Shown here: piece by piece, positions 42,266 through 64,000 of the stretch
How positions within the stretch are numbered: the first letter of the stretch is position 1
Layout: every line of letters begins with the position of its first letter
Position numbers and translations under genes: made by a program
NCBI GenBank assembly: GCA_028688055.1
Contig: JAQTYZ010000001.1
Coordinates: 39,866 to 103,865, forward strand
Direction of reading: 5' to 3'
Origin: Patescibacteria group bacterium
Lineage (GTDB): Bacteria; Patescibacteriota; Patescibacteriia; Buchananbacterales; UBA6539
Length of the DNA stretch: 64,000 bases
Notes under the pieces: generated by a model
Told to the model about the DNA's origin: nothing
Databases searched by the model: none
Seen by the model: only the letters and a program-made list of their open reading frames with translations

Positions 42266-42286
42266 ATGTCATTTATTATTAATTAT

Positions 42287-42308: not shown

Positions 42309-42402
42309 AATACTATATCTATGATAGATTATCTAACTAAGACCGTCAATACAGATGTACTTAATCGGCAGAAAATTAGCTTTAAAATTAGAATTTTTAA
42401 GT

Positions 42403-42431: not shown

Positions 42432-42476
42432 TCCATTTATTACTGTAACGCTTATTTAGCTATTGCGTCTTAATTA

Positions 42477-44157: not shown

Positions 44158-47100
44158 ATGCTTAAAAAATTACTAACCTACAGCGTAGTTCTTACTACCA
44201 TGGTTTGGTCCGTTGGTTTGATGGCCATGCCGGTGAGTGTTGGTGCTGCTGTTTCAGGCGATTTAGTTAAGCGAGCTAGCAGTTCCGCGGTTTACTACCT
44301 CGGTGCTGACAGCAAGCTTCACGTCTTTTTCAGTGCTGCTGACTATTACACCTGGTACTCGGATTTTTCTGGTGTTAAAACCATTTCGGAAACCGAGTTC
44401 TCATCATACGGCTTACCAGGGGAAAACGTTTTCCCAAGACCGGGCGTTAAGCTCGTTCAGGCCGTTGAAGGTCAGCCATGGCACACTTATAATGCCAATG
44501 TTTATGCTCTATCAGGAGATGGCATAACCCGAAAGATTGCTAGCGCTGCTGTTGCGGCTGCTATTTTTGGTGCCAATTGGGAAACTCAAATTATCCCAGT
44601 TGACATTACCATCTTTAGCCAGTTTGCTACCGGTGCTGATATCAATTCGGCTTCTGATTACGACAAAGCTTCCGAAATGAACAATGCTAGCTCAATCAAT
44701 GATGTCAAAAATCTAGGTAATGGCAATGTATCAACCGGTACTAGCCTAACCGTTTCTTTGGCTTCAGACACCCCAGCTAGTGGTATCGTTGTTGGAAATA
44801 CCATCAACAACAAATTCACCAAAGTTAATCTTACCGCTTCCGCTGACGGTGACATTGTCATCGACTCGCTAGTTGTAAGACGCGGTGGAACAGTTGCTTC
44901 CGACGGTGCTTTCAGCACCTTGGAAATCTTAGATGGTGCAACCATGATGAGAATTGGTGACACAAAAACCATCAATTCAACTCACATGGCAACCTTCAAT
45001 GAAGACATTAAGATTCCTGCCGGTACCACCAAGTCAATTTACTTGGCTGGTAACATGGGCAGTCTAGCCACTAAGGCTGGTGAAATTCCATCATTGGATC
45101 TATATTCAGTTACTTTAACTGGTAATGCTGCTGTTATCGGCAGTTTGCCAATTGTTGGTAACTACCAGAACCTAAATGGAACCATCACTGTCGGTGCTTT
45201 GACCGTTGCTAACGGAACCAACAATCCATCAGCTTCAACCCAGAAGATTGGTACTACCAAGTACATTGTCTCTGGTATTAAGTTGACTGCTAACTCAGTT
45301 GAAGACTTCAAAGTTTCCAGCTTAACCTTCAATGAAGGTGGAACGGCTGGCGATGCTGATGTTGCTAACTTACAGTTGTTAGCCGATGATGTTGTTGTTG
45401 CGACTGTTGCTAACCCAACCAGTAAGAATGTCGTTTTCAACCTATCGGCTAGCCCGGTCTTGGTTGCTAAAGGCAAGTCAGTTCAGTTTGATGTTCGTTT
45501 AGACATTGCTGACGGTTCAGCTCGAACCATCCGCTTTGATGTTAAGGACGAATCAGACGTCGTCGCTAAGGGCCAGTTATATGGTTCAGAAGTTAAGGCT
45601 TCTGCCGGAACCGGCGCGACCGCTGACGCTGATCCATTCTGGACAGCTCCAATTACCACTGTCTCAACCGGCACCCTAAGAATTGGCCCGGCCACTTTGT
45701 CCGCCGCCAATGTTCCGAATTCATCAACTCAAGTTGTCTTGGGTAAGTTTGAATTCGAAGCTAAGGGTGAGCCTTCAGTAATTACTTCCTTGCCAATCGC
45801 TTTCACCGTTACTACTTCATCAGGTAATTTATCAACCGACTCAACAGTCGACTTGACCAATGTTACCTTGTATGACGAAAACGGTTTGATTGTTGCTGGT
45901 CCGATTGACCCAGTAAGTAAGGGAACCCCTGGCAATAATGCCAAGGAATTGTTAGTTGCTACTTCAACTGACACCTTAACTGTCCCAGTTGGTGTTCACA
46001 CCTACACTGTTAAGGGTGACTTGGATTCAGACTTCGGTTCAAACGATACTATCGTTGCCCGAATCAACCCAGGTCAGGTCACTGATAAAGGCGATACTAC
46101 CGCTGTAACTATTTCAGCTACCCCAACAACCGATCAGAGTTCAGCCACCATGACGGTGCAGTCAGCTCAGTTGTCGGTTTCAGTTCTTAACACCCCAGTT
46201 GCTTCACAAATTGTTGCTGGAACTAAGAATTTGGAATTCGCCAACATCAGCTTAGGTACTCAGTCATCTGGTGAAGACATTAAGGTAACAACCATTAAGG
46301 TTGCTATCCACACCACCGGTGCTGCTTACCCAGCTCAGGTTTCGAACTGGTCAATATATGACGGCGCAACTAAGTTGGCTGTCACTTCAGACCCAGATTC
46401 AAACTTGTCATCGACTGCTGCCGCCGCTTCAACTTCAACATTCACCTTGTCAACTCCATTGGTCTTAACCAAGGGAACCAGCAAGACCTTGACTGTTAAA
46501 GGTGACGTTGCCGCTTCAGCCACTTCCGGCTCCATTAAGGCTGGTATGGCTGATTCAGTTGGTGCTGATAACATTTCAGCTAAGGGCAATGGCTCCGGCA
46601 CTGACGCTTCAATTACAATGAGCGTTAGCGACGGTCAGGCTATGACCCTAAATAGCGTTGGAACTCTAACCTTAACGTTAGACACAAGCTCGCCAAAGAC
46701 TGGCTTAATGCCAGGTGCTCCATCAAGCGGCTTAACCTTCGCTGTCTGGAATGCTTCTGCTCAGTATGAAGCAGTTAACATTGAGAAAATCTACTTGACC
46801 GCAACTGCCGCTAATTCCGGTGGTTGGGATCAAATTGCCAAGGTTTACATTTATGATGGCAGTACTATGTTGGCTTCAGTCGCTCCGACTTCTTCGGACG
46901 GCACTGCTAAAACTGTCTTAATTGATGTAACCAACAGTCCGATCCAGATTCCTAAGGACTCCAGCAAGAAGTTGACCATTAAGGTTGACACCACTGCTGC
47001 CGATGCCCAAAATGGATCAACCGGAACTTCCGGACAAGGATTGGCGATGACCATTACCGCCGCTGGTGATGTTACTGCCAAGGGTGCCCAGTCGGGTACA

Positions 47101-47874
47101 ACTGTCAGCTCAATCACCTTGACCGGTATTGCGTCAAACACCCAGTACTTGTATCGAACTGTCCCAACAATTGCTACTAACGACTTATTGTCGTCAGGTA
47201 AAGTTTCCAGCGGCACCTTAGATAGCGGAACTGCCGTAGGCAAAGACCTATATGCTTTCTCCGTTACCGCGGGTTCAACTGGTGACTTGGCATTGTATGA
47301 TGTAAGCTTCTACGTTGCTACCAACACCGCCACCATTACTAATATGGTGATTTCTGATGGTACTAACAACGTTGCTTACCAGCCAACCGGCGGTGACATT
47401 GCTGGATTCTTCCAGACCCAAGATGTCGGAACTGATGCGTGGAACGGAGCAACTCGATTTGTCTTCGTCAGCGACTTTACAGCTCCTGCTTCTTCAACCG
47501 CTGCAACCGTCGTGCCTTACACGATTGCTGCCAACACCACTAAGACTTTCACCCTACGTGGTGACGTCGCTTGTGTCACTGTTGGTGGTAGCGTCTGTTC
47601 AGGTGCAAGCGGAAGTGGATCACTTAGCGTCCAGTTGATGGGTAATACGGCTGCACCAGCCACTTACCCTGTCGCTATCTACACCTTGTCCAAGAATATT
47701 GGTCAGTTGTATAGCAACAGCTTCATCTGGTCAGATTTGACTGCTACCCACAATGCGGGTATCTCAGATCCAACCGCTACCACTTCATCTCAGTGGACCA
47801 ACGGTGCTTACGTAGCTTTGACCAATGGTGGCAAACTACAGGCAACCTCCACTGCGGTTACCTTCAGCAAGTAA
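44158..47874 (+). CDS. Large secreted surface protein with S-layer-like or adhesin-like composition and repeated beta-domains
   Basis: It is 1238 aa with a signal peptide (MLKKLLTYSVVLTTMVWSVGLMAMPVSVGA). It is extremely rich in Thr, Ser, Ala, Gly, Val and Asn, with few charged or aromatic residues. The domain-end motifs TYTVKGDLDSD, TLTVKGDVAAS and TFTLRGDVACV recur. GC is about 47% with a distinct codon bias, which fits high expression. A strong terminator follows. Confidence 0.55.
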   Translation: MLKKLLTYSVVLTTMVWSVGLMAMPVSVGAAVSGDLVKRASSSAVYYLGADSKLHVFFSAADYYTWYSDFSGVKTISETEFSSYGLPGENVFPRPGVKLVQAVEGQPWHTYNANVYALSGDGITRKIASAAVAAAIFGANWETQIIPVDITIFSQFATGADINSASDYDKASEMNNASSINDVKNLGNGNVSTGTSLTVSLASDTPASGIVVGNTINNKFTKVNLTASADGDIVIDSLVVRRGGTVASDGAFSTLEILDGATMMRIGDTKTINSTHMATFNEDIKIPAGTTKSIYLAGNMGSLATKAGEIPSLDLYSVTLTGNAAVIGSLPIVGNYQNLNGTITVGALTVANGTNNPSASTQKIGTTKYIVSGIKLTANSVEDFKVSSLTFNEGGTAGDADVANLQLLADDVVVATVANPTSKNVVFNLSASPVLVAKGKSVQFDVRLDIADGSARTIRFDVKDESDVVAKGQLYGSEVKASAGTGATADADPFWTAPITTVSTGTLRIGPATLSAANVPNSSTQVVLGKFEFEAKGEPSVITSLPIAFTVTTSSGNLSTDSTVDLTNVTLYDENGLIVAGPIDPVSKGTPGNNAKELLVATSTDTLTVPVGVHTYTVKGDLDSDFGSNDTIVARINPGQVTDKGDTTAVTISATPTTDQSSATMTVQSAQLSVSVLNTPVASQIVAGTKNLEFANISLGTQSSGEDIKVTTIKVAIHTTGAAYPAQVSNWSIYDGATKLAVTSDPDSNLSSTAAAASTSTFTLSTPLVLTKGTSKTLTVKGDVAASATSGSIKAGMADSVGADNISAKGNGSGTDASITMSVSDGQAMTLNSVGTLTLTLDTSSPKTGLMPGAPSSGLTFAVWNASAQYEAVNIEKIYLTATAANSGGWDQIAKVYIYDGSTMLASVAPTSSDGTAKTVLIDVTNSPIQIPKDSSKKLTIKVDTTAADAQNGSTGTSGQGLAMTITAAGDVTAKGAQSGTTVSSITLTGIASNTQYLYRTVPTIATNDLLSSGKVSSGTLDSGTAVGKDLYAFSVTAGSTGDLALYDVSFYVATNTATITNMVISDGTNNVAYQPTGGDIAGFFQTQDVGTDAWNGATRFVFVSDFTAPASSTAATVVPYTIAANTTKTFTLRGDVACVTVGGSVCSGASGSGSLSVQLMGNTAAPATYPVAIYTLSKNIGQLYSNSFIWSDLTATHNAGISDPTATTSSQWTNGAYVALTNGGKLQATSTAVTFSK

Positions 47875-47895
47875 TCAATCCTGATTACTTAAAGA

Positions 47896-47937
47896 CCAAA
47901 AAAGTCCTCGCTAACCGCGGGGACTTTTTGGTTTGTT
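47896..47937 (+). terminator. Strong rho-independent terminator after the surface-protein gene
   Basis: The stem ccaaaaaagtcc...ggactttttgg is about 11 bp and is followed by tttgttg. Confidence 0.75.
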
Positions 47938-48045
47938 GTCATCCTGAATCTGTCAAAGGATTAAAAATGTCATCCTGAACTTGTTTCAGGATCTCTTGTC
48001 ACTAGCCCTTTTTTTTGCTAACTTTATATAAGTTTAGGTATAAAT

Positions 48046-49731
48046 ATGGAGCATTTTTTAGTCAAATACCATAAAATTATTTTAGTGGCTATTATTATTT
48101 TAGCGGCCGGTTTGATTTTTTTTGGCTTAACCCGAGCCGATATTCAGATTGATGATGCGACGTATTCTTTTCGATCACTGGGATATTTAGATTATATGGC
48201 GTCGCAATTGCAGACCACGCCGTTGCAATGGTTTGACAGTTTACCGACTTGGTCGCATTTGTCATTTCACGACTCGCCGCCACTGGTTTTTATTATTCAA
48301 TTTATTTTCTTTAAAATTTTTGGGGCCACCGTTTTGGCCGCTCGTTTGCCTTTTGCCCTGGCCGGACTCGTCAGTATTTATCTAACTTATTTGATTGGTA
48401 AAAAGTTATTTGGTGAAAGCGTTGGATTATTGTCAGCACTTATTTTGACAATTTCCAGTTACCATATTTGGGCGAGTAAAGTTGGCTACCTAGAACCAAT
48501 GGCCTTAGCCTTTATTCTATTGACGCTTTATTTGTTCCTAGTCAGTTTAGATAACCATAAGTTTTTTATTCTGTTGGGTGTTGCCCTTGGCTTAATGTTT
48601 TTGACCAAGTACACTACTTTATTTGTCTTGCCGGCGATTTTGATCTATCTATTGATTGTTAATAAAAAATTATTGGCCAATAAATATTCGATATCAGGCG
48701 CGGTGATTGCTATTTTTCTTTTTTCGCCGGTGATTTATTACAATGTTAAAACTTTCCAGACCAGAGGTCATTTGGATTTGCAACTGACAAAACTGTTTGG
48801 TCAAAGTATGGCTGATTGGCCGGGGTTGGCGGCGGACAGCACCAATCATAATTATTTGAAGCAGGGAATTCAATTTTGGTCCGACCTCATGGTTTCGTCC
48901 TCGCTGCCGTTTTACCTACTTATGATGTTGTCAGTGGTTTATTTATTTTTTATCGCCGCCAAGAAGTATCAGAATAAAAAATATTTATTTCTGCCACTGC
49001 TGATTACCTTTATTACTTTGCAATTTTCCGTCATCGGTTCAGCGGTTAGATTTTCATCAATTATCAATCCATTTTTAGCCATTACTTTAGCCCTGGCAAT
49101 TGTTGAAATTTATCATTGGCTTATCAGGGGAGAGCAAAATAAGCCTTTGGTGCTTGGCTTCACGGCAATTTTATTTATCATTTTTGCCTTTGAATTGTTT
49201 TATAATCTAAACACCAATATTTTTTTAGAGCCCGTCGGGGAAAAAGGTAAATTTTATTCCATTTACCGCTGGGAAAGTTTGGGGTTTAATCAATTGAATC
49301 AATATTTGGTTGATAACGAGGGTTTGAAGTTTTCCTTTGCGCACCCTATCAAAAGTAAAAATGATATTAAATTGGACTTCAGTAATATTCCTAATAGTCA
49401 AATTTTTGTTTTTGATCCTGACTTGAATTGGTTTTCAACGCTTTGGTATTTCACCCGTTACACCGTGTATTCAGGAAATTATTTCCTGTCCGCTTCTGAT
49501 TTAGCGATCTTTTTTAAAGATTCCAACTGGCTTGATTTTTTTAAAAAAATTGGGGTAAAAAACGTCTACTTTATTCGCGGTGTTGACAATAAAACTAAAA
49601 ATGAGCTCAACGAGGCGTCGTCTTCCAAGTTAGAAGCTATATTTTTATCAGCTGGTGCCACCGAGCATGATATTAATAATATCAATCGCAAAGTATCAAT
49701 CAAACTTTATAAATTAACATTTAATCAGTAG
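48046..49731 (+). CDS. GT-C fold membrane glycosyltransferase (PMT/ArnT family, GT39/GT83-like)
   Basis: There are 11-13 TM helices and an N-terminal DD/DE-x-x-Y loop motif (DDATYSFRSLGY). It is a paralog of the 50421 gene and shares LPFALAGL...SSYHIWASKVG. Confidence 0.65.
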   Translation: MEHFLVKYHKIILVAIIILAAGLIFFGLTRADIQIDDATYSFRSLGYLDYMASQLQTTPLQWFDSLPTWSHLSFHDSPPLVFIIQFIFFKIFGATVLAARLPFALAGLVSIYLTYLIGKKLFGESVGLLSALILTISSYHIWASKVGYLEPMALAFILLTLYLFLVSLDNHKFFILLGVALGLMFLTKYTTLFVLPAILIYLLIVNKKLLANKYSISGAVIAIFLFSPVIYYNVKTFQTRGHLDLQLTKLFGQSMADWPGLAADSTNHNYLKQGIQFWSDLMVSSSLPFYLLMMLSVVYLFFIAAKKYQNKKYLFLPLLITFITLQFSVIGSAVRFSSIINPFLAITLALAIVEIYHWLIRGEQNKPLVLGFTAILFIIFAFELFYNLNTNIFLEPVGEKGKFYSIYRWESLGFNQLNQYLVDNEGLKFSFAHPIKSKNDIKLDFSNIPNSQIFVFDPDLNWFSTLWYFTRYTVYSGNYFLSASDLAIFFKDSNWLDFFKKIGVKNVYFIRGVDNKTKNELNEASSSKLEAIFLSAGATEHDINNINRKVSIKLYKLTFNQ

Positions 49732-49733
49732 TT

Positions 49734-50417
49734 ATGAACAAGAAAAAAATCAATCTAATCATTTCCATTGTCGCGGTCGTTATCGTTATTGGCTCATTGG
49801 GTTATTATCTTTATCCGAAGTCGAATGGTATAAAGCCAGCGGCGCCAAATTATTTTGAAATTAAAATTGTCGACCAGACTCTTCCTCAGAAAACAAAGGA
49901 TGCTTATGTGGCACAATTTAATAAAACTAAAGAAGAGTTATTGCAGAATCCGGATTTATTTAATCAATGGATGGACCTAGCGATGATTAAAAAACAATTT
50001 GGCGATTATCAGGGCGCTGAAGAGATTTGGCTTCACGCTAGTGACCTTCGACCTAAAAATAGCTTGTCTTATAGTAATCTAGCCGATCTCTATACAAATT
50101 TCTTAAAAGATTATGATAAGGCGCTGCCAAACTACCAGTCAGCCATTGCTAACTCTATCGGTGAACCTATTAACGTATCTTATGTCCGAAACTTTTTTGA
50201 TTTTTATTATTATAATTTGAATGATCAGGCCAAGGCTGAACAAGTCTTACTCCAAGGTGAAGAAAATAATCCAAAAAATATTGATATGATGATTTTGCTT
50301 GCCAGTTATTATGAAGACGAAGGTAATAAGGCTAAAGCTTTGGAGTATTATCAGAAAGCTCTTGATATTGATTCAAGCGATCAGTCAGTTAAAGCTGCAA
50401 TCAAGAAATTAAAATAA
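49734..50417 (+). CDS. Membrane-anchored TPR-repeat protein
   Basis: It has an N-terminal TM helix and TPR repeats (e.g. KAKALEYYQKALDIDSSD). It is sandwiched between the two GT-C genes. Confidence 0.55.
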   Translation: MNKKKINLIISIVAVVIVIGSLGYYLYPKSNGIKPAAPNYFEIKIVDQTLPQKTKDAYVAQFNKTKEELLQNPDLFNQWMDLAMIKKQFGDYQGAEEIWLHASDLRPKNSLSYSNLADLYTNFLKDYDKALPNYQSAIANSIGEPINVSYVRNFFDFYYYNLNDQAKAEQVLLQGEENNPKNIDMMILLASYYEDEGNKAKALEYYQKALDIDSSDQSVKAAIKKLK

Positions 50418-50420
50418 AAT

Positions 50421-53240: not shown

Positions 53241-53348
53241 AAAGTAGACCCTTGAAGAGGGTATTTTTTGGCTTGACTGAAAGCAAATTTTATATAATAA
53301 TAATAAGGTATTATTGGTTAATAATCAAGTTATTTTTTTTGCTAAAAT

Positions 53349-54302: not shown

Positions 54303-54306
54303 GATT

Positions 54307-55557: not shown

Positions 55558-56675
55558 TGAAGATTTTAATTTTTTCTTTAGCTTATTTACCGTTCATCGG
55601 CGGCGCCGAACTGGCGGTTAAGGAAATAACTGATCGGCTGCGGGATATTGATTTTGATCTGTTAACCGTCAATCTCGATGGCAAACAACAGCCAGTTGAG
55701 GAAATCGGCAATATTACTGTTTATCGTTTAGGTTTGGGTAAAAAAGCAAAATATTTTTTCCCTTATTCGGCCTATAATAAAGCCGTTGAACTTCACCAAA
55801 AAAATAATTACGATGTAACCTGGGCGATAATGGCCAATCAGGGCGGTATTGCGGCTTACCGATTTAAAAAACATTTTCCCGACGTTAAATATATTTTAAC
55901 TCTGCAAGAAGGGGATTCGTTGAAGCGAATTTGGAGTCGGACTTTTTTTATGAGATCTTTGTATAAAAAAATTTATGGCTCAGCTGATTTTATTCAACCC
56001 ATTAGTAGTTTCTTAAAATATCGGGCGGAAAAATATGGGTATCAAGGAAATATAAAAATTGTCCCTAACGGCGTTGATCTTGCGAAATTTCAGGATGAAT
56101 TTTCGGACGTCGAACGTAATGAGTTTCGGAGCAAGCTAGGGATATTAGCCACCGATAAAGTTGTTATTACAACATCTCGATTGGTTTATAAAAATGGTAT
56201 TGATAATTTAATCCGCGCGATGCGCAATGTTTCAGCCAAACTATTGATTTGCGGTGACGGCGGGTTGGAGATTAAATTAAAATCTTTAGCGCAAGAAATT
56301 GGGGTAAAAGATAAAATATTATTTTTAGGCCATATTGATCAAACGGATTTGCCAAAATATTTGCGCTCAGCTGATGTCTACGCCCGACCATCGCGTTCTG
56401 AAGGTTTGGGCTCCGCTTTTTTGGAAGCGATGGCGGCCGGGCTGCCAGTTATTGGTACTAAGGTTGGCGGTATCCCTGATTTTTTAATTGATGGTAGCAA
56501 TGGTTTATTTTGTGAGGTTGATAATCCTAGTGATTTGGCCAATAAGATTAATTTGTTGCTAACTGATAGCGCTTTGCGACAACGGCTGATTGAAGCAGGA
56601 CGAGCAATAGTGTTTAAAAATTATGACTGGCAACAAATTACCGATCAAATGAAAGAAATTTTTGAAAAAAAATAA
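55557..56675 (+). CDS. Glycosyltransferase family 4
   Basis: SEGLGSAFLEAMAAGLPVIGTKVGGIPDFL. Confidence 0.75.
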   Translation: MKILIFSLAYLPFIGGAELAVKEITDRLRDIDFDLLTVNLDGKQQPVEEIGNITVYRLGLGKKAKYFFPYSAYNKAVELHQKNNYDVTWAIMANQGGIAAYRFKKHFPDVKYILTLQEGDSLKRIWSRTFFMRSLYKKIYGSADFIQPISSFLKYRAEKYGYQGNIKIVPNGVDLAKFQDEFSDVERNEFRSKLGILATDKVVITTSRLVYKNGIDNLIRAMRNVSAKLLICGDGGLEIKLKSLAQEIGVKDKILFLGHIDQTDLPKYLRSADVYARPSRSEGLGSAFLEAMAAGLPVIGTKVGGIPDFLIDGSNGLFCEVDNPSDLANKINLLLTDSALRQRLIEAGRAIVFKNYDWQQITDQMKEIFEKK

Positions 56676-56677
56676 TT

Positions 56678-57805
56678 ATGAAGCTGGTAATTGCTGCTGA
56701 TATTTTTCCGCCGGACATTGGTGGACCTGCGACCTACAGCTTAAAGTTGGCAGAAAAATTAACTGCATTGGGCTGGCAAGTTAAGTTGGTTTGTTATAGT
56801 GATCAAGAACATCAAGATAATTTTTCATTTGCCGTCGCGCGCATTAATCGTCAGCACCATGTTATTGCTCGATATTGGCGCTATTTTGTAATTTTATTTT
56901 CTTTGTCCGCTGACGCTGATGTCATTTACGCGCAAGGTCCGGTCAGTGCCGGCTTACCGGCAGCCCTGGTCGCCAAACTGTTAAAAAAGAAATTAGTGGT
57001 GAAAATTGTCGGTGATTATGCCTGGGAATATGCGAGGAATTCTAAAAAAAGTACTTTGGGAATTGATGAATTCCAAACTGCAAGATTAACAGGTAAGGTA
57101 AGGCGACTGAAAAAAATTGAGACTTGGGTCTGTCGGCGAGCCGATAAAATAATTACGCCGAGTTTTTATTTGAAAAAAATTGTCTCAGGTTGGGGTATTA
57201 ATGATGGTAAAATTGAAGTGATTTATAATTCGGAACCGACTTCTCGTTATACTATTTCGCCAGCAGCGATTAATAAAAATCAGCTTTTGTCAGTCGGTCG
57301 TCTCGTACCGTGGAAAGGTTTTGAAGTTTTGATCGAGGTGGTTAAGGAATTGAATGACCAAAATGATCATTTTAATCTAATCATCCTTGGCGACGGGCCG
57401 GATAAAAAAAATCTGGTTAAAAAAATTAGCTCCTTCGGTGCTAGTGAGTTTGTCCTAATTAAGACGGCCAGCCAACTCGAGGTTGTTGATGAAATGAGCC
57501 AATCCGGAATTTTTATTCTTAATAGTGGCTATGAAGGTTTATCTCATACTATTTTGGAAGCTTTTTCGGCTGGCGTACCCGTTATCGCCAGCAATATTGG
57601 AGGTAATCCGGAGTTAATTACTGATGGGGAAAATGGCATTTTAGTTGAATATAATAATAAAGAACAGCTGAAGGCTGCCATCATTAAAATCGCCAATGAT
57701 GATGAATTACGAAAAAGTTTTATTGATAAATCTACAACAGTGCTGGAAAATTTTAGTGAGTCTAGGATGTTAGGTCGAATTAAGGAATTATTGGAACAGT
57801 TATGA
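56678..57805 (+). CDS. Glycosyltransferase family 4
   Basis: YEGLSHTILEAFSAGVPVIASNIGGNPELI. Confidence 0.75.
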   Translation: MKLVIAADIFPPDIGGPATYSLKLAEKLTALGWQVKLVCYSDQEHQDNFSFAVARINRQHHVIARYWRYFVILFSLSADADVIYAQGPVSAGLPAALVAKLLKKKLVVKIVGDYAWEYARNSKKSTLGIDEFQTARLTGKVRRLKKIETWVCRRADKIITPSFYLKKIVSGWGINDGKIEVIYNSEPTSRYTISPAAINKNQLLSVGRLVPWKGFEVLIEVVKELNDQNDHFNLIILGDGPDKKNLVKKISSFGASEFVLIKTASQLEVVDEMSQSGIFILNSGYEGLSHTILEAFSAGVPVIASNIGGNPELITDGENGILVEYNNKEQLKAAIIKIANDDELRKSFIDKSTTVLENFSESRMLGRIKELLEQL

Positions 57806-58917
57806 AAGTACTAATGATTTCAATTGATAAGGGGCTGCTGGGTCGCGATCAACTCGGCGATGTTATTAATCGGCACGCGGCGTATGGCAAATATGTTGAT
57901 ATTTTAGATATTTTAGTATTAAGCCCCGTTGGCTTCAACCAAAACAAAATCTCGGATAATGTGACAGCCTATCCGACCAATTCGGCCACTAGGCTCAAAT
58001 ATTATTTTGATGGTTTACGCATAGCTAAAAAAATGTATCAGAAAAAAAAATATGATCTAGTGGTTTGCCAAGAACCGTTTGTCGGAGGTTTAATAGCTGT
58101 CAAGCTCAAAAAAAAGTTTAAGATCAAAATTTTACTGCATTTTCACGGTGATTTTTGGCAAAATCCATCATGGCTCAAAGAAAGTAAATTGAATTTTTTA
58201 TTTTTAGCGATTTCAAAAATAACCGTTAGGAAAGCTGATGGCATCAGAGTGATGAGCGAAGGGCAAAAAACGAAACTTATTTCGGCCGGTATCAATCAAG
58301 AAATTATTAAAGTTATTTCCACGCCGGTTAATTTAGAAAAATATCGCCACCCCGATATTAATCAGGTCGCGATTAATCGCGGCAACGGGATGCCAATTGT
58401 TTTGCACGTTAGTCGAGATGATGTGGTTAAAGACTTTCCAACCTTAATTAAAGTTTTTGATTTAGTCTATCAAAATTTTCCACCGGTTCGATTTTGGCAA
58501 GTCGGAGCGCGCTCGACTATGGAAGAATTGAAAAAAAAGTTTCCACATTTGCCCATAACGCTAACCGGTAAAATTGACCAGAATAGCTTAGTTAATATTT
58601 ACCATGCGGCTGATGTTTTGGTTTTAACTTCAACCTCAGAGAGTTTTGGCAAAGTCTTGGTTGAAGCCAACGCTTGTGGTAAACCGGTTGTAGCGACTCA
58701 AACCACCGGCGCCAAAGAAATTGTGATTGATGGCGAGAACGGCTACTTAGCGCCGGTGGGCGACGCGGAAAAAATTGCGGAAAAGATTATTTACTTATTA
58801 AATAATCCGGCTGTGGCTAAAGCCATGGGGGCAAGAGGTCTAGAGCTAGTGAACAAAAATTTTGGCAATAATACCGAAAAGATTATTAGTTTTTGGCGGG
58901 AGGTGGCGGGGATATGA
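57802..58917 (+). CDS. Glycosyltransferase family 4
   Basis: SESFGKVLVEANACGKPVVATQTTGAKEIV. It overlaps the previous gene by 4 nt (ATGA). Confidence 0.75.
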   Translation: MKVLMISIDKGLLGRDQLGDVINRHAAYGKYVDILDILVLSPVGFNQNKISDNVTAYPTNSATRLKYYFDGLRIAKKMYQKKKYDLVVCQEPFVGGLIAVKLKKKFKIKILLHFHGDFWQNPSWLKESKLNFLFLAISKITVRKADGIRVMSEGQKTKLISAGINQEIIKVISTPVNLEKYRHPDINQVAINRGNGMPIVLHVSRDDVVKDFPTLIKVFDLVYQNFPPVRFWQVGARSTMEELKKKFPHLPITLTGKIDQNSLVNIYHAADVLVLTSTSESFGKVLVEANACGKPVVATQTTGAKEIVIDGENGYLAPVGDAEKIAEKIIYLLNNPAVAKAMGARGLELVNKNFGNNTEKIISFWREVAGI

Positions 58918-59942
58918 AATTAATAATGATCACAAGAAAAGTCGACCGGTCAGAGCACTTAGCTGGCTTTATTTATAATTGGGTTAACAAAATTAGCCGT
59001 CACGTCAATCAGCTAATCGTTATTAGTTGGCAGGAAGGCGATGCTAGTGGTTTACCTGGTAACGTTAAAGTTATTTTTTTACCAACTAACGCCAATAAGC
59101 TGGTTAAGGTTATTAAATTCGCCGCGGCGCTGCGCCACTATATCAAAGATGTTGACGGTATCTTTTGTCATCAGATGCCACTGTACACAATTCTAGCCGC
59201 GCCATTTTCCAAGTTATATCATAAGAAAATTGTGAGTTGGTATATGCATCGACAGGTAGATTTTAAAATGAAAGTTATGGAAAAATTATCCGATGTTGTG
59301 TTGTCAGCTTCGGCGGAGAGTTTTCGTCTGCCGACAAAAAAATTAGTGCTTACTGGCCACGGCATTGATGTTAATATTTTTCAGCCCGCCAAGATGGAGG
59401 TTGGCAGTAAGTCATTATTAACCGTTGGCCGTATTTCCCCCACGAAAGATTATGAGTCAATGATCAAGGCCGTTGATATTTTACATAAGAGTGGTGACAA
59501 TTTTAATCTATCAATTATCGGCAATATCGGCTTAAAGGATCAAGCCGTATATTTGGCGAGTCTCAAGGGTATGGTTGACGCCATGAAACTCAAAAATCAA
59601 GTATCATTTCTCGGACCGCGGTCTAACACCCAAATCCCGTCCTACCTCCAAAAAACGTCGATTTTTATTAATTTAAGCGGTACGGGCAGCGTTGATAAAG
59701 CAGTCCTTGAGGCGATGGCTTGTGGTTGTTTAGTCCTAACCAGCAACGAAGCTTTTAAGCCGATTTTACCGGAGGAATTAATGGTTGAGCAAAACAACCC
59801 GAAGCAATTGGCCGAGAAAATAAAATGGTTGACATCACTTGATTACTCAAAAATTAATGACCTGCGGTTAGTACTCAGGGAAATCGTTGTTAATAATCAT
59901 AACCTTGATAATTTAGTTAAAAAAATTATTTCACAATTTTAA
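58914..59942 (+). CDS. Glycosyltransferase family 4-like
   Basis: TGSVDKAVLEAMACGCLVLTSNEAF. The start is taken at the ATG at 58914, which overlaps the upstream stop (ATGA). Confidence 0.6.
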   Translation: MKLIMITRKVDRSEHLAGFIYNWVNKISRHVNQLIVISWQEGDASGLPGNVKVIFLPTNANKLVKVIKFAAALRHYIKDVDGIFCHQMPLYTILAAPFSKLYHKKIVSWYMHRQVDFKMKVMEKLSDVVLSASAESFRLPTKKLVLTGHGIDVNIFQPAKMEVGSKSLLTVGRISPTKDYESMIKAVDILHKSGDNFNLSIIGNIGLKDQAVYLASLKGMVDAMKLKNQVSFLGPRSNTQIPSYLQKTSIFINLSGTGSVDKAVLEAMACGCLVLTSNEAFKPILPEELMVEQNNPKQLAEKIKWLTSLDYSKINDLRLVLREIVVNNHNLDNLVKKIISQF

Positions 59943-60859
59943 TGATGAATTTCCGGCGACTTAAAAAAGAATTATACTACTTGCGCAAATCATTTTTTGA
60001 GTTTCATCGCCCAGTTCAATATACAATGTTGAGATTTTTTTATGCCAAAAAAATTCTTAAGTCGGCCACCCCTCTTGATCGAGCGGCCGACCGAACTGAT
60101 TTGTCAATTCATCTTTTAGTTTGCAGTCGCGATATTTTGATGATGTGCTGGTCACTGGCGAGTTATTACGCGGTCAGTAAATCAGTTGGTAAACTATATA
60201 TTCATAATGACGGAAGCTTGACGAAAAATGATATCACTATTATTACAAAATTATTTCCCCAGGCGACCATTGTCAAGACGGAATTGTTTGTTAAACAGTA
60301 TGAGTCGGAATTGTCAGTATATCCGCAAATTTATCGCTGTCGGTTAGACAAGCGGTATGTTTATTATAAAAAATTAATTGATCAATATTTTGTTTCTTCA
60401 GCGCCAATTCATCTTATTATTGATAGTGATTTGTTGTGGTTTTTACCGCCGACTGAGTTAGAGCGTGCTTATGATGAGGCAAAATCAAAATCATTAATGA
60501 TGCCAAATCTGTCAACGGCCGATGTCTATTTTAAGGGCGGCGAAGCCATGCCGAAAAATTTTGCGATGTATAATTCCGGCATTGTGATGTTTCATCGTAA
60601 CAATTTTAATTTGACGAGATTGGAAGATTTTTTGTCTCGGGTTGACGGCGATGACCCGCGTAATCATTTTATTGAGCAGGGCGCCTTTGCTTATTGTCTT
60701 GATTTTCTTTTACCATTACCGCTTGATCGGTATCATATTAAGGGAGAAATTAATAATGAAACAGTTGTGAAACATTACACCAGCCCGCGGCGACCACTAT
60801 TTTATATTGAAGGAGTTAAATTGTTAAAAAATAAATTAATTAAATATGCAACGAACTGA
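59942..60859 (+). CDS. Hypothetical protein, possibly a nucleotide-diphospho-sugar transferase with a DxD motif
   Basis: It contains IIDSDLLWF, a DSD stretch. I found no other recognisable motifs. It sits inside the glycosylation locus. Confidence 0.3.
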   Translation: MMNFRRLKKELYYLRKSFFEFHRPVQYTMLRFFYAKKILKSATPLDRAADRTDLSIHLLVCSRDILMMCWSLASYYAVSKSVGKLYIHNDGSLTKNDITIITKLFPQATIVKTELFVKQYESELSVYPQIYRCRLDKRYVYYKKLIDQYFVSSAPIHLIIDSDLLWFLPPTELERAYDEAKSKSLMMPNLSTADVYFKGGEAMPKNFAMYNSGIVMFHRNNFNLTRLEDFLSRVDGDDPRNHFIEQGAFAYCLDFLLPLPLDRYHIKGEINNETVVKHYTSPRRPLFYIEGVKLLKNKLIKYATN

Positions 60860-61439
60860 TTTTTTGTTTCAGCATCTCCAGACCGGTAAAATTTTAGATG
60901 TCGGTAATTTAGGAATGGATGCTGAAATTCATGACTTATTAATTAAGAAATATTCCGATAGTCAGATTTATGGTTTAGACGTTGAGAATCAAGCCAAATA
61001 CGGAAAAAATTACTCTAATCAATTAGTTGGTAACGCCGAAGCCATGCCCTATGAAGACAACCTTTTTGACACGATTTATTTAGGTGAAGTCTTGGAACAC
61101 ACTTGGCAACCCAAAGTTTTGATTGGTGAGTGTTTCAGAGTTTTGAAGCCGGGCGGTGTTTTAATTTTAGATACGCCAAATGTTTATGCTCTTTCAAGAT
61201 TAATTAGATATTTCATTATTGGGCAAGATATAATTCTAGGTAACCCCGACCATAAAATATTTTTTTCTCGCGCGATGCTAGATAATTTATTTAAAAAAGT
61301 CGGCTTTAATGTTATTACGACAATGGCTGATAATAAATTTACACTTAAAAGCAAAAATTTTTCTTTGCCCCGTTTTGGCGCTTTAAAATTTCAGGGTGAA
61401 CATTTACTTGGAGCGGCTAGAAAACCTCATGGAAATTGA
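60846..61439 (+). CDS. Class I SAM-dependent methyltransferase
   Basis: ILDVGNLGMD is a motif-I-like sequence, and LKPGGVLILDTPN is also present. Confidence 0.6.
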   Translation: MQRTDFLFQHLQTGKILDVGNLGMDAEIHDLLIKKYSDSQIYGLDVENQAKYGKNYSNQLVGNAEAMPYEDNLFDTIYLGEVLEHTWQPKVLIGECFRVLKPGGVLILDTPNVYALSRLIRYFIIGQDIILGNPDHKIFFSRAMLDNLFKKVGFNVITTMADNKFTLKSKNFSLPRFGALKFQGEHLLGAARKPHGN

Positions 61440-62493
61440 TCGGATAAAATTTAAATTATTTGCTTTCCCGTTGGCTTTAAAAGCCCCTAACGCTTATTGG
61501 GACAATTTATATGGTGAAATTGCAAAGTCCGGGGAGGTTAAAATTTATAATAATGATTTTTGGAAATTATTATTTTCCTTTAATCGACCGCAGATTGTTC
61601 ATCTCCATTGGCCGACGATTTTGTACGCTAGTCGTTATTCAATTATTCGTCCAATTAAATTATTAATTAGACTAAAAATTTTATTACTTTCAAAACTTCG
61701 TGGTGATATTTTAGTCTGGACCATGCATAATTATAAAAGTCATGAGTCTGGTGATAAAATTTTGGACAAAATTGCTATGACTTTTTTAGTTAAATTTTCT
61801 GATTCAATTATTGTCCATACGGAAGCTGGTAAAATTTTTTTAGCTCAAAAATATAAAAGGCTTAAAAATGTCTATATCATTGAGCATGGAAATTATGTTA
61901 ATTTTCACGGCCCAATTAAGGATCGTCCGGACGATAATTTATTGCGTCGGTTGGGCTTGACGGAAAATGATAAAGTTTATTTAAGTTTAGGATCCATAAA
62001 AAGATATAAGGGTTTAGAAAAAATTATTAAGGTTTTTAACCAATTGCCTCGTAACAATAAATTACTTATCGCTGGCAAATCGTTTGATCAAAGTTACCTT
62101 GATGATTTGAAAGCTTTGGCTAAAAATCAAAATATTATTTTTTCCATTGGCACCATCCCCGGTGATGATTTACCGAGCTATTTTTCACTTGCTCGCGCTT
62201 CACTTTTTTCTTTTAATGAAGTGTTGACGTCTGGCTCAGTTATTCTTTCACTATCATATGCGGTGCCAGTCTTAGTGCCAGCCGAGGGAGACTTGCCTTA
62301 CATAATCAAAGATGATTTTAATGGTTTTCTTTATCATTCTGAAGCAGAATTTAGAGATAAACTTAGTAATTTTATTTTAATGTCTGATGATAAATTAACC
62401 CAACTTAAAAAAGGCAGTTTTGGTTTTGCTAACAATTTAAGTTATAATAAAATTGCCAAAAAAACTTTAGTGGCATATAAAATTTTAAAATAA
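61396..62493 (+). CDS. Putative glycosyltransferase (GT-B-like)
   Basis: The N-terminal IVHLHWP resembles a GT4 N-terminal domain. The assignment rests mainly on context and is weak. The true start may be the ATG at about 61430. Confidence 0.35.
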   Translation: MNIYLERLENLMEIDRIKFKLFAFPLALKAPNAYWDNLYGEIAKSGEVKIYNNDFWKLLFSFNRPQIVHLHWPTILYASRYSIIRPIKLLIRLKILLLSKLRGDILVWTMHNYKSHESGDKILDKIAMTFLVKFSDSIIVHTEAGKIFLAQKYKRLKNVYIIEHGNYVNFHGPIKDRPDDNLLRRLGLTENDKVYLSLGSIKRYKGLEKIIKVFNQLPRNNKLLIAGKSFDQSYLDDLKALAKNQNIIFSIGTIPGDDLPSYFSLARASLFSFNEVLTSGSVILSLSYAVPVLVPAEGDLPYIIKDDFNGFLYHSEAEFRDKLSNFILMSDDKLTQLKKGSFGFANNLSYNKIAKKTLVAYKILK

Positions 62494-62496
62494 ATT

Positions 62497-63198
62497 ATGA
62501 TGGAAAAGACAAATTTTTACGATGAGTTGTATTCAAAAAAAGGTAAAGCAGCAATGCGTCCTTATTGGGTTTATGACAATTGGTTTAAGCTGTTAGGGCC
62601 GGTGGAACGTGGTCAAAGTCTGCTCGATGTTGGATGCGGTACGGGGTTGCTTTTAAAAGCGGCCGAACATAGGGGATTAAAGACGTTTGGTTTAGAACTT
62701 TCCATTGAAGCGATTAAGCTGGCGGCGGAAAACTCACCAAATTCTGAAATAACTCAAGGCGAAGGTGAACATTTACCTTTTGCCGATTCACAATTCGATT
62801 ATGTGTGTTGTCTGGGAACTTTAGAGCATATGTCCGATGTCCCAAAGGGACTAAATGAGCTTGTTCGGGTTGGTAGGCAAACTGCTAAATTTTTGATCGT
62901 GCTCCCTAATGATAATTATTTTTTTTGGAAATTAAAAAAAATTAATAAAGGCACCGCTCAAAGGGATTTTGAAGAATTAAAAACTCTAGCTGAATGGAAA
63001 AAAATGTTAGCTAATGCTGGGCTGGAAATAATTGGTAAAATTAGGCAAGACAAGTATCCCAGTCAGGAGCTCAAGATTTTTGCTTTTAAAAATCCGTATA
63101 AGGTTATCCGACGAATGATGTATAAATTTATTTGGTTGTTTATGCCGTTAAAATATACTTATCAGTTTGTTTTTATTTTAAAGAAAAAAACTCAATGA
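62497..63198 (+). CDS. Class I SAM-dependent methyltransferase
   Basis: LLDVGCGTGLLL is motif I. EHLPFADSQFDYVCCLGTLEHM is also present. Confidence 0.7.
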   Translation: MMEKTNFYDELYSKKGKAAMRPYWVYDNWFKLLGPVERGQSLLDVGCGTGLLLKAAEHRGLKTFGLELSIEAIKLAAENSPNSEITQGEGEHLPFADSQFDYVCCLGTLEHMSDVPKGLNELVRVGRQTAKFLIVLPNDNYFFWKLKKINKGTAQRDFEELKTLAEWKKMLANAGLEIIGKIRQDKYPSQELKIFAFKNPYKVIRRMMYKFIWLFMPLKYTYQFVFILKKKTQ

Positions 63199-64000
63199 AA
63201 ATAGTCTATATTGCCAACATTAGAATTCCAACGTCGAAAGCGCACGGGTTGCAGGTCGCCAAGATGAGTGAAAGTTTTTCCGCAAACGGTGCTGAAGTTG
63301 AGCTAGTTGTGCCCAGTCGAAAAAATCGAGAGCTACTTGGCGTCAATCTATTTTCTTACTATGGAATAAAGAAAAATTTTACTTTTAAAAAAATATGGTG
63401 CCTTGACCCGCTTTTTTTAATTGGTTTTAAAAACGGAATTTATATTAAAATTCAATCGTTGTTGTTCAGTGTTAGTTTATTTTTTTATTTAGCTTTCAAG
63501 AATAAAACTAGCTCGGATGTTGGTTATGTCCGCGATGAGTATCTACTGCCAATTGTTTTAAGGTTTTTCCCAAATGTGGTTTGGGAGGCTCATAATTTGC
63601 CTAACCATCGCCAGTACTACGTTAAGTACTTTAAGCGCTGTCAAAAAATCGTAACGATAACTTCTGGTTTAAAACAAGATTTAATAACCTTAGGGGTTAG
63701 CGCTGATAATATATACGTCGCCCCTGATGGAGTTGATTTGGATCAGTTTGCGGTTAAAGAAGATAAAAACTATTGTCGCAAGCAATTAAATTTAGTCAAA
63801 GACCAAAAATTGATAATATATACTGGCCAGCTTTTTGAATGGAAGGGGGTATTTACCTTAGCCGACTGTGGGCAATATCTAACGGGCGCCACAATTATTT
63901 TTGTTGGGGGCACTGCCACTGATCAAACAATTTTAAAAAAATATATCGAGGGTAAAAAAATTATTAATACCGTTTTAATTAATCAGCAGCCGCATGATAA
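63195..64000 (+). CDS. Glycosyltransferase family 4, cut at its 3' end by the window edge
   Basis: It overlaps the previous gene with ATGA at 63195 and is not in the ORF track because no stop is reached. MKIVYIANIRIPTSKAHGLQVAKMSE... and VGGTATDQ look like a GT4 N-terminal domain. The reading frame stays open to position 64000. Confidence 0.55.
   Translation, partial: MKIVYIANIRIPTSKAHGLQVAKMSESFSANGAEVELVVPSRKNRELLGVNLFSYYGIKKNFTFKKIWCLDPLFLIGFKNGIYIKIQSLLFSVSLFFYLAFKNKTSSDVGYVRDEYLLPIVLRFFPNVVWEAHNLPNHRQYYVKYFKRCQKIVTITSGLKQDLITLGVSADNIYVAPDGVDLDQFAVKEDKNYCRKQLNLVKDQKLIIYTGQLFEWKGVFTLADCGQYLTGATIIFVGGTATDQTILKKYIEGKKIINTVLINQQPHD

Follow-up and report, generated by a model that had tools for sequence, protein, structure and literature searches.

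A 64-kb stretch of DNA (referred to here as the window) from a Patescibacteria genome related to Candidatus Buchananbacteria contains a locus in which the gene for a 1238-amino-acid candidate surface layer (S-layer) protein is followed by genes for sugar-transfer enzymes. This gene neighborhood, which pairs a probable coat protein with both membrane-bound and soluble enzymes of sugar transfer, most likely builds a sugar-decorated coat. The arrangement is not due to chance; it is shared by many ultra-small Patescibacteria and recurs in dozens of species-level genomes. The more specific reading, that the locus is an S-layer glycoprotein module in which the downstream genes decorate the 1238-amino-acid protein with sugar, was given a probability of about one-half. 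The anatomy of the locus and its synteny were observed directly, and each chemical step proposed below is one that we infer.

Little is understood about the cell envelope of the Patescibacteria (Candidate Phyla Radiation); genome papers have called its structure unclear and have guessed at a glycosylated S-layer in general terms. Patescibacteria live attached to hosts, and both the host and phages meet the cell surface, so that knowledge of the coat and its sugars bears on attachment, host range, and cultivation. The locus offers a conserved coat-protein gene set, a dedicated tetratricopeptide repeat (TPR) partner, probable decorating membrane enzymes, and a candidate regulatory RNA. As a type of system, S-layer glycosylation clusters are known already, and the S-layer identity of this class of proteins has probably been predicted already. 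In literature searches, neither the conserved TPR partner, nor the exchange of GT-C and Wzy_C enzymes at one position, nor the coupling of GT2 and GT-C enzymes in this setting, nor the leader RNA was found described, and a search on cryo-tomography of patescibacterial surface layers returned nothing relevant.

A candidate S-layer protein and its conserved neighbors

The candidate S-layer protein is encoded at positions 44158 to 47874 on the plus strand. It consists of a signal peptide (approximately residues 1 to 30), an N-terminal module (residues 32 to 185), and six immunoglobulin (Ig)-like domains (approximately residues 193 to 1238), and it had zero matches to Pfam or NCBIfam models. An AlphaFold2 (AF2) model built from a 70-sequence alignment had a mean predicted local distance difference test score (pLDDT) of 88.4 and was all-beta beyond a mixed N-terminal domain. 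Internal repeat comparison resolved the body of the protein into six domains of ∼150 amino acids that are detectably homologous to each other. Export through Sec is strongly indicated. The initial annotation had described an S-layer-like secreted protein "extremely" rich in threonine and serine. The signal peptide and, by structure prediction and fold search, the Ig-like domains were found, and lattice formation is a prediction made for the class described below. Serine and threonine account for 24.6% of the residues, compared with 8 to 18% in 19 other proteins of the window, an enrichment of about 2-fold over background, but these residues are evenly spread, without a mucin-like tract.

More than 300 homologues were found, nearly all of 1130 to 1300 amino acids and every one from Patescibacteria (Buchanan-, Komeili-, Falkow-, Portnoy-, Doudna-, Sung-, Ryan-, and Lloydbacteria), with those from Candidatus Buchananbacteria the nearest. 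A 2024 preprint predicted a patescibacterial S-layer class by lattice modeling (bioRxiv 10.1101/2024.05.28.596244). Members of that class have a signal peptide and six Ig-like assembly domains in 1131 to 1274 amino acids, with examples from Nealson-, Doudna-, and Kaiserbacteria, and are widespread in Patescibacteria, including Parcubacteria; the predicted lattice is a hexagonal spiral-pyramid like that of Haloferax volcanii, and in metatranscriptomes homologues rank in the top five secreted proteins by expression (bioRxiv 10.1101/2024.05.28.596244). The window protein likewise has a signal peptide followed by six tandem Ig-like domains and a length within ∼1130 to 1275 amino acids. It was matched to the class by length and domain plan and presumably belongs to the same family. 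The main text of the preprint does not mention glycosylation; no account of the gene neighborhood, a TPR partner, or a leader RNA was seen in its text and supplement, in which those terms were not specifically searched (bioRxiv 10.1101/2024.05.28.596244).

The N-terminal module (154 amino acids; positions 44251 to 44712, plus strand) has no Pfam model. An exhaustive search placed it in 3266 protein clusters; a word-indexed search with the same module had returned 7 proteins. The module either follows directly on the signal peptide or is C-terminal, in proteins of 157 to 2348 amino acids, and those of its host proteins that could be annotated carry extracellular domains (Big_1, carbohydrate-binding modules [CBM_4_9], fn3, and SdrD_B). 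In some homologues of the 1238-amino-acid protein it is replaced by PG_binding_1. This mobility and swapping resemble the behavior of a wall anchor, and the module is a candidate for a new wall-anchor domain of Patescibacteria, as judged from sequence comparisons. An architecture of the Gram-positive S-layer type, with a swappable N-terminal anchor and six Ig-like domains of a type found in S-layer lattices, is strongly indicated. The C-terminal ∼30 residues (positions 47781 to 47871) are among the best conserved in the family (F-x-W-S-D-L ... Q-W-x-N-G-Y ... A-T-S-T); as speculation, the TPR partner could recognize this tail, or the tail could form a contact at the lattice tip.

In order to compare gene neighborhoods, 84 nonredundant loci, mostly one per species, were collected in a locus scan with an 18-sequence alignment; the 70-sequence alignment was too divergent for this purpose and was dropped. 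Open reading frames (ORFs) of the loci were labeled by similarity to the genes of the window and to three Wzy_C proteins from relatives. A TPR gene of ∼235 amino acids follows the large gene in 66 of 67 assessable loci. Of 56 loci, 43 encode within 10 kb a GT-C enzyme and/or a Wzy_C protein of ∼770 amino acids, often with a TPR tail (16 encode both, 13 GT-C only, and 14 Wzy_C only, so that Wzy_C is present in 30 of the 56), and GT4 genes are found in 39 of 56. Upstream of the large gene, an extracytoplasmic function (ECF) sigma factor gene is present in 50 of 70 loci and a DUF5667 gene in 44 of 70. Thus, the linkage of the large protein to TPR, GT-C or Wzy_C, GT4, and sugar-nucleotide genes, which the initial annotation had read as a dedicated system from a single genome, proved to be conserved. 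Several contigs that carry the locus (L014, L018, L020, L054, L078, and others) are labeled Gammaproteobacteria, Thermoplasmatales, Nanoarchaeota, "archaeon," or Saccharibacteria; these labels are probably binning or labeling errors.

The TPR protein of the window (227 amino acids; 49734 to 50417, plus strand; TPR families of Pfam) is encoded between two GT-C genes. An N-terminal transmembrane segment is present in 68 of 72 homologues, and from the positive charge of this N terminus an outward orientation of the TPR region is predicted. In one lineage, the S-layer and TPR genes remain linked in a neighborhood from which sugar genes are missing, which indicates that it is the large protein with which the TPR protein is partnered. 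Linkage of the TPR gene is to the S-layer gene and not to the GT-C genes, as the 66 of 67 loci attest. Loci of the clade to which the window belongs have the order GT-C, TPR, GT-C and lack Wzy_C; none of the ORFs scanned with Pfam between 42 and 64 kb of the window matched Wzy_C.

This conserved neighborhood also bears on the view that the large protein serves in adhesion or attachment to a host and is not the S-layer subunit, with the sugar genes forming a surface-polysaccharide cluster of general purpose that is not specifically linked to it. Fold searches with the protein gave generic Ig-like, cohesin-like, and adhesin-like matches alone, as that view would have it. However, there is one copy per locus, with length and domain number conserved across classes, and the gene comes with a conserved leader of its own and with a ribosome-binding site and a terminator that are both strong. 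In addition, the lattice predictions and expression data of the preprint cover what is apparently the same class (bioRxiv 10.1101/2024.05.28.596244), the TPR gene is linked to it in nearly every locus, and glycosylation genes frequently are. Thus, it seems very unlikely that the protein is an adhesin with an unrelated sugar cluster beside it.

The closest likeness to the S-layer glycoprotein module proposed here is the slg cluster of Geobacillus stearothermophilus NRS 2004/3a and the corresponding spaA/wsfB region of Paenibacillus alvei, in which an S-layer gene also adjoins glycosylation genes. In G. stearothermophilus, sgsE is followed by wsaA, which encodes a 168-amino-acid TPR protein, and then by wsaB, which encodes an O-oligosaccharyltransferase of the Wzy_C type; rhamnosyltransferase genes come after wsaB, one of them with a chain-terminating methyltransferase domain (S-layer glycosylation review). 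WsfB and PglL carry TPR motifs themselves, and slg clusters also encode a priming enzyme, an ABC-2 exporter, and a sugar-nucleotide pathway (S-layer glycosylation review). The shared elements are an S-layer gene, a small TPR protein, a membrane transferase, soluble transferases, nucleotide-sugar genes, and methyltransferase activity, and the order in Patescibacteria generally is S-layer gene, TPR, Wzy_C and/or GT-C, transferases, and methyltransferases. A Wzy_C protein with a TPR tail serves as the membrane transferase in many patescibacterial relatives and resembles WsfB and PglL in this respect, and the 227-amino-acid TPR protein between the GT-C genes of the window parallels WsaA. This match in gene order is the strongest argument for S-layer glycosylation. 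By synteny and by analogy with slg, the S-layer protein itself would be the protein that is glycosylated.

The differences from slg are substantial. The window has two PMT_2-type GT-C enzymes in place of Wzy_C, and its cluster lacks a WsaP-like priming enzyme, a Wzm/Wzt exporter, and rml genes; of the priming, export, and sugar-nucleotide parts, the patescibacterial cluster has the sugar-nucleotide pathway alone. In addition, the patescibacterial transferases are nearly all of the GT4 family, the S-layer protein is of an unrelated family, and the locus comes with an ECF sigma/anti-sigma pair and a structured leader RNA.

GT-C enzymes, soluble transferases, and sugar supply

Two paralogous membrane enzymes, 31% identical, are encoded on either side of the TPR gene: GT-C 1 (561 amino acids; 48046 to 49731, plus strand) and GT-C 2 (563 amino acids; 50421 to 52112, plus strand). 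Both matched PMT_2 (5e-27 and 95.5 bits for GT-C 1; 1e-23 and 84.3 bits for GT-C 2; cut-off, 26.1 bits) and PMT (7e-11 and 42.5 bits; 2e-9 and 37.9 bits; cut-off, 22.7 bits). An acidic pair after the first transmembrane helix (DD in GT-C 1 and DE in GT-C 2), the first Asp of which is invariant in 34 sequences, aligns with the DE of Pmt1 and Pmt4. Residues D36, R43, D49, H75, D76, K188, H242, and D244 were invariant in the family alignment, as was the motif S-F-H-D-x-P-P, and both paralogues have kept the invariant residues, the Asp of the catalytic loop included.

The relationship of these enzymes to characterized families was similar in every comparison. The family profile scored 21.7 bits against ArnT, 21.4 against Pmt4, and 20.8 against Pmt1 among PDB sequences, and the best single-sequence match among solved structures was ArnT 5ezm, at a marginal E value of 1e-3. 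An AF2 model of GT-C 1 (pLDDT, 89.7) had the GT-C fold, and Foldseek matched it to AglB, ArnT, STT3, ALG12, Pmt4, and PglB at template modeling (TM) scores of ∼0.5, with AglB, ArnT, and STT3 ranked ahead of Pmt4. Sequence, profile, NCBIfam, and Foldseek comparisons thus gave equally weak matches to ArnT, PMT, AglB/STT3, ALG, and Emb/Aft. The WWD (WWDxG) motif is found in neither sequence, and no MIR domain was matched in either protein; the model has a C-terminal alpha/beta domain instead. The proteins have the GT-C fold and belong to the PMT_2 family, and a finer assignment to ArnT, PMT, or the oligosaccharyltransferases is impossible. Their earlier description as PMT-like holds in that the PMT_2 and PMT profiles were matched above their cut-offs, but the enzymes are no closer to PMT than to ArnT, AglB, or STT3. 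No confident classification as ArnT or as a polymerase, the result that the initial annotation had named as contrary to its reading, emerged from the sequence, profile, or structure searches.

The GT-C fold, the PMT and PMT_2 matches, and the acidic pair after the first helix are shared with actinobacterial Pmt (GT39) and eukaryotic PMT enzymes, and the HD(H/S)PP motif of the family resembles the loop-1 motif of PMT. Actinobacterial Pmt works with the polyprenyl-phosphate-mannose synthase Ppm1, and the eukaryotic TMTC enzymes carry TPR modules. A GT2 polyprenyl-phosphate-sugar synthase as the partner of GT-C in relatives recalls the former, and the association of TPR modules with the transferase recalls the latter. 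In contrast to PMT enzymes, the GT-C proteins of the window lack MIR domains, and their ∼21-bit similarity to PMT is no better than that to ArnT. A literature search on GT39 in the Candidate Phyla Radiation returned nothing relevant.

With ArnT (GT83), the enzymes share the best single-structure match (5ezm), a similar length, and a comparable outward-facing C-terminal domain. However, the similarity is marginal, and no arnA-, arnB-, or arnD-like genes are present in the window. Genes for lipid A synthesis have been reported to be absent in a Parcubacterium (published genome paper), and the acceptor of ArnT should therefore be absent. The Agl system of Haloferax volcanii offers a further likeness in its six-Ig-domain S-layer architecture (bioRxiv 10.1101/2024.05.28.596244), and the GT-C model matches AglB as well as it does any other enzyme. 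However, TM scores of ∼0.5 are generic to the GT-C fold, and without WWDxG the proteins are not oligosaccharyltransferases of the STT3/AglB type; moreover, the organism here is bacterial, and O-linkage rather than N-linkage would be expected.

GT2 genes in related loci suggest what the GT-C enzymes may use as a donor. In locus L089 (positions 7318 to 9695), the gene for a 227-amino-acid GT2 protein overlaps the start of a GT-C gene inside an S-layer-linked cluster. The best matches of this protein were AglJ, PpgS, dolichyl-phosphate-hexose transferase, and ArnC; its highest score was against AglJ, the dolichyl-phosphate-hexose synthase of S-layer glycosylation, but at 133 bits was below the cut-off of 325. 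In locus L048 (16152 to 18596, minus strand), GT2 and PMT_2 are fused in one protein of 815 amino acids, also inside an S-layer-linked cluster, and at least four further loci (L015, L024, L061, and L088) have GT2 genes. A more distant paralogue lies elsewhere in its genome. The pairing and fusion of a polyprenyl-phosphate-sugar synthase with GT-C imply a polyprenyl-monophosphate-sugar donor and the transfer of single sugars at the outer face of the membrane. Judged from these arrangements, the GT-C enzymes probably transfer sugars singly, outside the membrane, and not as a complete glycan. It is thus unlikely that a PMT_2-type GT-C enzyme transfers the GT4-built glycan en bloc, as had been proposed initially; in relatives, that role is more plausibly held by Wzy_C, which is absent from the window.

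The genes that follow GT-C 2 encode soluble transferases and enzymes of sugar supply. The first, a GT4 gene by Pfam (52113 to 53240), is on the minus strand; it is the most conserved soluble transferase gene of the locus, and most related loci have it at the corresponding position on the corresponding strand. A nucleotide-sugar 4-epimerase of the SDR family (53349 to 54302, plus strand) matched PDB entry 5u4q at 352 bits, 6zl6 and related entries at 183 bits, and MoeE5 at 142 bits; its NCBIfam matches were below cut-offs. We take 5u4q, 6zl6/6zla, and MoeE5 to be UDP-glucuronate 4-epimerases. The next gene (54307 to 55557, plus strand) encodes a nucleotide-sugar 6-dehydrogenase of the TviB/Cap5O (UDP-N-acetylhexosamine) type, which scored 376 bits against TviB of NCBIfam, under the cut-off of 592, 141 bits against Cap5O of the PDB, and 370 bits against a general NDP-sugar dehydrogenase model, above its cut-off. 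The closest matches of these two enzymes make a hexuronic or N-acetylhexosaminuronic acid in the product likely.

Four consecutive GT4 genes follow on the plus strand (55557 to 56675, 56678 to 57805, 57802 to 58917, and 58893 to 59942), with Glycos_transf_1 matches of 3e-22 to 6e-46; none of the GT4 genes reached an NCBIfam equivalog cut-off. Downstream, all on the plus strand, are a 305-amino-acid protein with the DxD-like motif IIDSD and no Pfam or NCBIfam match, possibly a GT-A-type transferase (59942 to 60859); a 197-amino-acid S-adenosylmethionine (SAM)-dependent methyltransferase (60846 to 61439; Methyltransf_11, 1.7e-14); a divergent GT4-type glycosyltransferase (61396 to 62493; Glycos_transf_1, 8.6e-15), for which the public gene call in locus L008 corresponds to a start at ∼61429; a second SAM-dependent methyltransferase (62497 to 63198; Methyltransf_11, 4.6e-20); and a last GT4 gene of 383 amino acids (Glyco_transf_4), which starts at 63195, runs past the end of the window at 64000 to ∼64346, and is seen in full in L008. 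In L008 this final GT4 gene is followed by a minus-strand gene, which places the end of the cluster ∼350 nucleotides beyond the window.

All ORFs of the initial annotation were recovered at its coordinates in the ORF list and translations, and its family assignments agree with Pfam; only its count of methyltransferases differs. The count of seven or more GT4 enzymes was confirmed, with seven GT4-type genes, as were the epimerase, the nucleotide-sugar dehydrogenase, and the DxD protein. Three SAM methyltransferases had been listed; the region has the two given above, and a third, at 9861 to 10556, lies far outside. The unit had been taken to start at 44158, but it begins at ∼41987 and ends at ∼64346.

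If the S-layer glycoprotein module operates as its gene content suggests, the dehydrogenase and the 4-epimerase would supply UDP-(N-acetyl)hexuronic acid, and the eight soluble transferases (seven GT4 enzymes and the DxD protein) and two methyltransferases would assemble a glycan, methylated and containing uronic acid, on a lipid carrier on the inner side of the membrane, with priming and flipping provided by genes elsewhere in the genome. At the outer face, the two PMT_2-type GT-C enzymes would use polyprenyl-phosphate-linked single sugars to modify Ser/Thr residues of the emerging S-layer protein, or alternatively would extend the glycan of the S-layer protein outside the membrane. The membrane-anchored TPR protein could hold the S-layer protein or present it to the GT-C enzymes. 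In many relatives, a TPR-bearing Wzy_C protein at the same position would transfer a preassembled glycan; in the genome of the window, Wzy_C may have been lost from the locus or replaced by the second GT-C enzyme.

Several observations weigh against this proposal. No priming phosphoglycosyltransferase and no Wzx or Wzm/Wzt (ABC) exporter were found between 42477 and ∼64346, and no flippase-like polytopic ORF was found in the related loci examined; with no phosphoglycosyltransferase, flippase, or Wzy_C, the cluster of this genome does not account for the outward route of a GT4-built glycan. The GT-C family, as described above, is no closer to the protein O-mannosyltransferases than to ArnT or the oligosaccharyltransferases. 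Thirteen of 56 loci hold the S-layer and TPR genes with no GT-C or Wzy_C detected nearby, and a subset of these 13 also lack GT4 genes. Attachment of glycan to the 1238-amino-acid protein is a step that we infer, and homology of that protein to the accessions of the preprint (A0A1G2EN61, A0A1F5NRV7, and others) is presumed from the description of their class. The glycosylation cluster is found in 30 of 33 loci with the N-terminal module versus 8 of 18 loci without it, a correlation that is suggestive but confounded by phylogeny. An ABC-2 transporter at 11267 to 12815, the sole ABC-2 system in the window, was considered as a Wzm/Wzt exporter and rejected; it scores as DrrB-type and is 32 kb away.

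The correlation with the N-terminal module is what would be expected if the sugar genes made a cell-envelope glycopolymer, either a teichuronic-acid-like secondary wall polymer or a membrane-anchored lipoglycan, rather than a protein-linked glycan. Cytoplasmic GT4 enzymes would then build a lipid-linked core, and GT-C enzymes using polyprenyl-phosphate sugars and/or Wzy_C would extend or polymerize it outside, in the manner of mycobacterial lipomannan or of streptococcal rhamnan decoration, with the cluster beside the S-layer gene because the N-terminal module binds the polymer. Uronic-acid supply and many GT4 genes are typical of anionic wall polymers, and the module is common to thousands of other surface proteins, as expected of an anchor that binds a wall polymer. 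Three-component glycan-decorating systems pair a GT2 polyprenyl-phosphate-sugar synthase with a GT-C enzyme, which is the logic of the GT2 and GT-C pairing seen here, and in Bacillus anthracis and Clostridioides difficile the S-layer genes adjoin wall-polymer loci. However, no LCP-type ligase, Wzx flippase, or chain-length regulator was present in the loci examined; a separate TPR protein and a TPR-bearing Wzy_C are features reported for O-oligosaccharyltransferases of S-layer proteins and pilins; eight loci have the cluster even though their S-layer protein has a different N-terminal domain; and the phylogenetic confounding noted above limits the weight of the correlation. A glycopolymer as the product is the main alternative and is plausible on this evidence, if somewhat unlikely.

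The missing priming enzyme and flippase would also be explained if the GT4 enzymes glycosylated the Ser/Thr-rich protein in the cytoplasm before export, as staphylococcal SdgA/SdgB and the GtfA/GtfB enzymes of serine-rich-repeat adhesins do, with the GT-C enzymes serving a different substrate. The GT4 proteins did show similarity to SdgA/SdgB and GtfA, at 50 to 84 bits, but these scores are far below the family cut-offs of 575 to 800 and reflect generic GT4 similarity. The locus has no accessory SecA2/SecY2 system, the serine and threonine residues are spread over folded Ig-like domains rather than confined to repeat tracts, and the conserved extracytoplasmic partners (TPR, GT-C, and Wzy_C) point to modification outside the membrane. 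Cytoplasmic glycosylation therefore appears highly improbable.

Taken as a whole, the interpretation given in the initial annotation is partly supported. A more elaborate form of the S-layer glycoprotein proposal would have the patescibacterial S-layer protein O-glycosylated by an unrecognized subfamily of PMT_2-type GT-C enzymes, fed by GT2 (fused to it in one genome) and substituting for or acting alongside a TPR-bearing Wzy_C, with the TPR protein presenting the substrate and a structured leader RNA of a new class, in which a AAAGGUCG loop is invariant, controlling coat synthesis. This combination of claims is tentative and, in its entirety, rather unlikely. If PMT_2-type GT-C enzymes do glycosylate the S-layer protein and are interchangeable with Wzy_C, the range of bacterial protein O-glycosylation machineries would be wider.

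Leader RNA and sigma/anti-sigma unit

A conserved structured leader RNA of ∼215 nucleotides (43944 to 44160, plus strand) is located directly 5' of the S-layer gene. It is conserved in at least 22 species-level loci and occurs nowhere else in 1.47 Mb of related DNA: nhmmer and covariance-model searches gave 24 matches, each directly 5' of the large gene. The leader of ∼245 nucleotides described initially is the intergenic space, which is 258 nucleotides long and includes the terminator of the upstream gene (43913 to 43934).

RNAalifold predicted no structure from a MAFFT alignment of the leaders, in which the hairpins were out of register. After realignment with a covariance model, one helix was recovered cleanly. 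This long-range helix pairs 43977 to 43986 with 44048 to 44057; it was 91% paired, with compensatory changes at all ten pairs (10/10), and RNAalifold found the same helix independently. In the covariance-model alignment, 71% of the cells were paired, compared with 60.2% in shuffles, and the covariation score was 0.318 versus 0.173 for shuffled alignments, with 0 of 500 shuffles reaching 0.318; the score fell to 0.087 to 0.149 once the pairing partners were slid. The leader, which has several covarying helices, also contains the invariant sequence AAAGGTCG (44004 to 44011; AAAGG(U/C)CG across loci), followed directly by a hairpin (44012 to 44025) that was supported by individual folding in ∼21 of 22 sequences and differs in sequence among them. 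A long hairpin follows at 44069 to 44112. The terminal hairpin was poorly aligned (39.8% of cells paired) and is supported instead by per-sequence folding. The leader contains a strong ribosome-binding site, AAGAAAGGAAAA, before the S-layer gene. No match was found in Rfam, a permissive threshold included. The leader is a real element, undescribed as far as the literature and Rfam searches reach; mRNA stabilization, translational control, and feedback are possible roles.

The strong terminator described initially after the large gene was confirmed at 47899 to 47929 (plus strand), where a 13-bp stem is followed by a T run. It is strongly indicated that the S-layer gene, between its structured leader and this terminator, is a transcription unit of its own.

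Upstream of the leader are genes for an ECF-type sigma factor (187 amino acids; 42477 to 43040, plus strand; Sigma70_r2, 1.5e-12; Sigma70_r4_2, 6.5e-15) and for a putative anti-sigma factor (289 amino acids; 43030 to 43899, plus strand; DUF5667, 4e-11) that overlaps the sigma gene by 11 nucleotides. The DUF5667 protein has one transmembrane segment, with the DUF5667 domain predicted to face outward; it has no recognized anti-sigma domain, and its position suggests the anti-sigma role. A literature search on DUF5667 returned nothing relevant. A sigma factor with regions 2 and 4 only, an overlapping gene for a membrane protein, and a promoter of the AAC...CGT type are all present, as in ECF sigma/anti-sigma pairs. 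The unit is closed by a terminator-like hairpin (43913 to 43934, plus strand) with a 9-bp stem that includes 6 G-C pairs.

The ECF-type motif, GTAAC-N16-CGTC (42445 to 42469, plus strand), ends 8 nucleotides before the start codon of the sigma gene and is a candidate autoregulatory promoter. It is the sole match in the window, and because a single match is within chance expectation, its weight comes from its position and from its conservation before the sigma gene in at least 7 relatives. The motif scan of the window gave no match in front of the S-layer gene or in the leader, and the motif thus makes no case for that gene being under direct ECF control. Between the motif and the sigma start codon (42445 to 42476), no ribosome-binding site can be seen; with the motif 8 nucleotides from the start, sigma mRNA from the candidate promoter may be leaderless. 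A sigma-70-like promoter match (TTGACT, 17 nucleotides, TATAGT) at 42403 to 42431 on the plus strand, upstream of the sigma gene, came from a consensus scan and is a consensus match only; TTGACT and TATA.T are kept in relatives.

Divergent from the sigma gene is a gene for a 92-amino-acid helix-turn-helix (HTH) protein (41987 to 42265, minus strand), and HTH_17 genes occur at the same position in loci L001, L003, L005, and L006. The palindrome TTTGTCTAcaatatacTAGACAAA (42286 to 42309), located between the HTH and sigma genes and a conserved block in a 14-locus alignment, is a candidate operator. This 24-nucleotide palindrome (TTTGTCTA...TAGACAAA) beside the HTH gene recurs in related loci, and the two look like a repressor and its operator.

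Other features of the window

A second ECF-type sigma factor gene is present at 13847 to 14431. It is overlapped by a 269-amino-acid ORF without a family match (the region extends to 15170), and the two may be another sigma/anti-sigma pair. Type IV pilus genes, encoding a PilT-like ATPase and pilin-like proteins with an N-terminal methylation motif, are located at 34988 to 38356, a few kilobases upstream of the S-layer locus; pilus genes are likewise upstream in loci L001, L003, and L005 and directly upstream in L007.

At 28043 to 30785, a gene for a 469-amino-acid polytopic membrane protein with no family match, which has a WTKNEG motif reminiscent of GT-C enzymes, overlaps the gene for a 452-amino-acid DUF6938 protein weakly similar to diglucosyl-diacylglycerol synthase; these may be a glycolipid-related pair. 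A 511-amino-acid ORF at 14 to 1549 had weak matches to the catalytic domain of aspartate carbamoyltransferase and matches to its regulatory chain (PyrI), and may be a PyrB-PyrI fusion; its G+C content, 0.51, is unusually high. The adenylosuccinate synthetase ORF (40376 to 41872, minus strand), which also has a high G+C content of 0.51, is 498 amino acids long from a GTG codon, compared with 430 to 434 amino acids in relatives, and its listed start is probably too far upstream.

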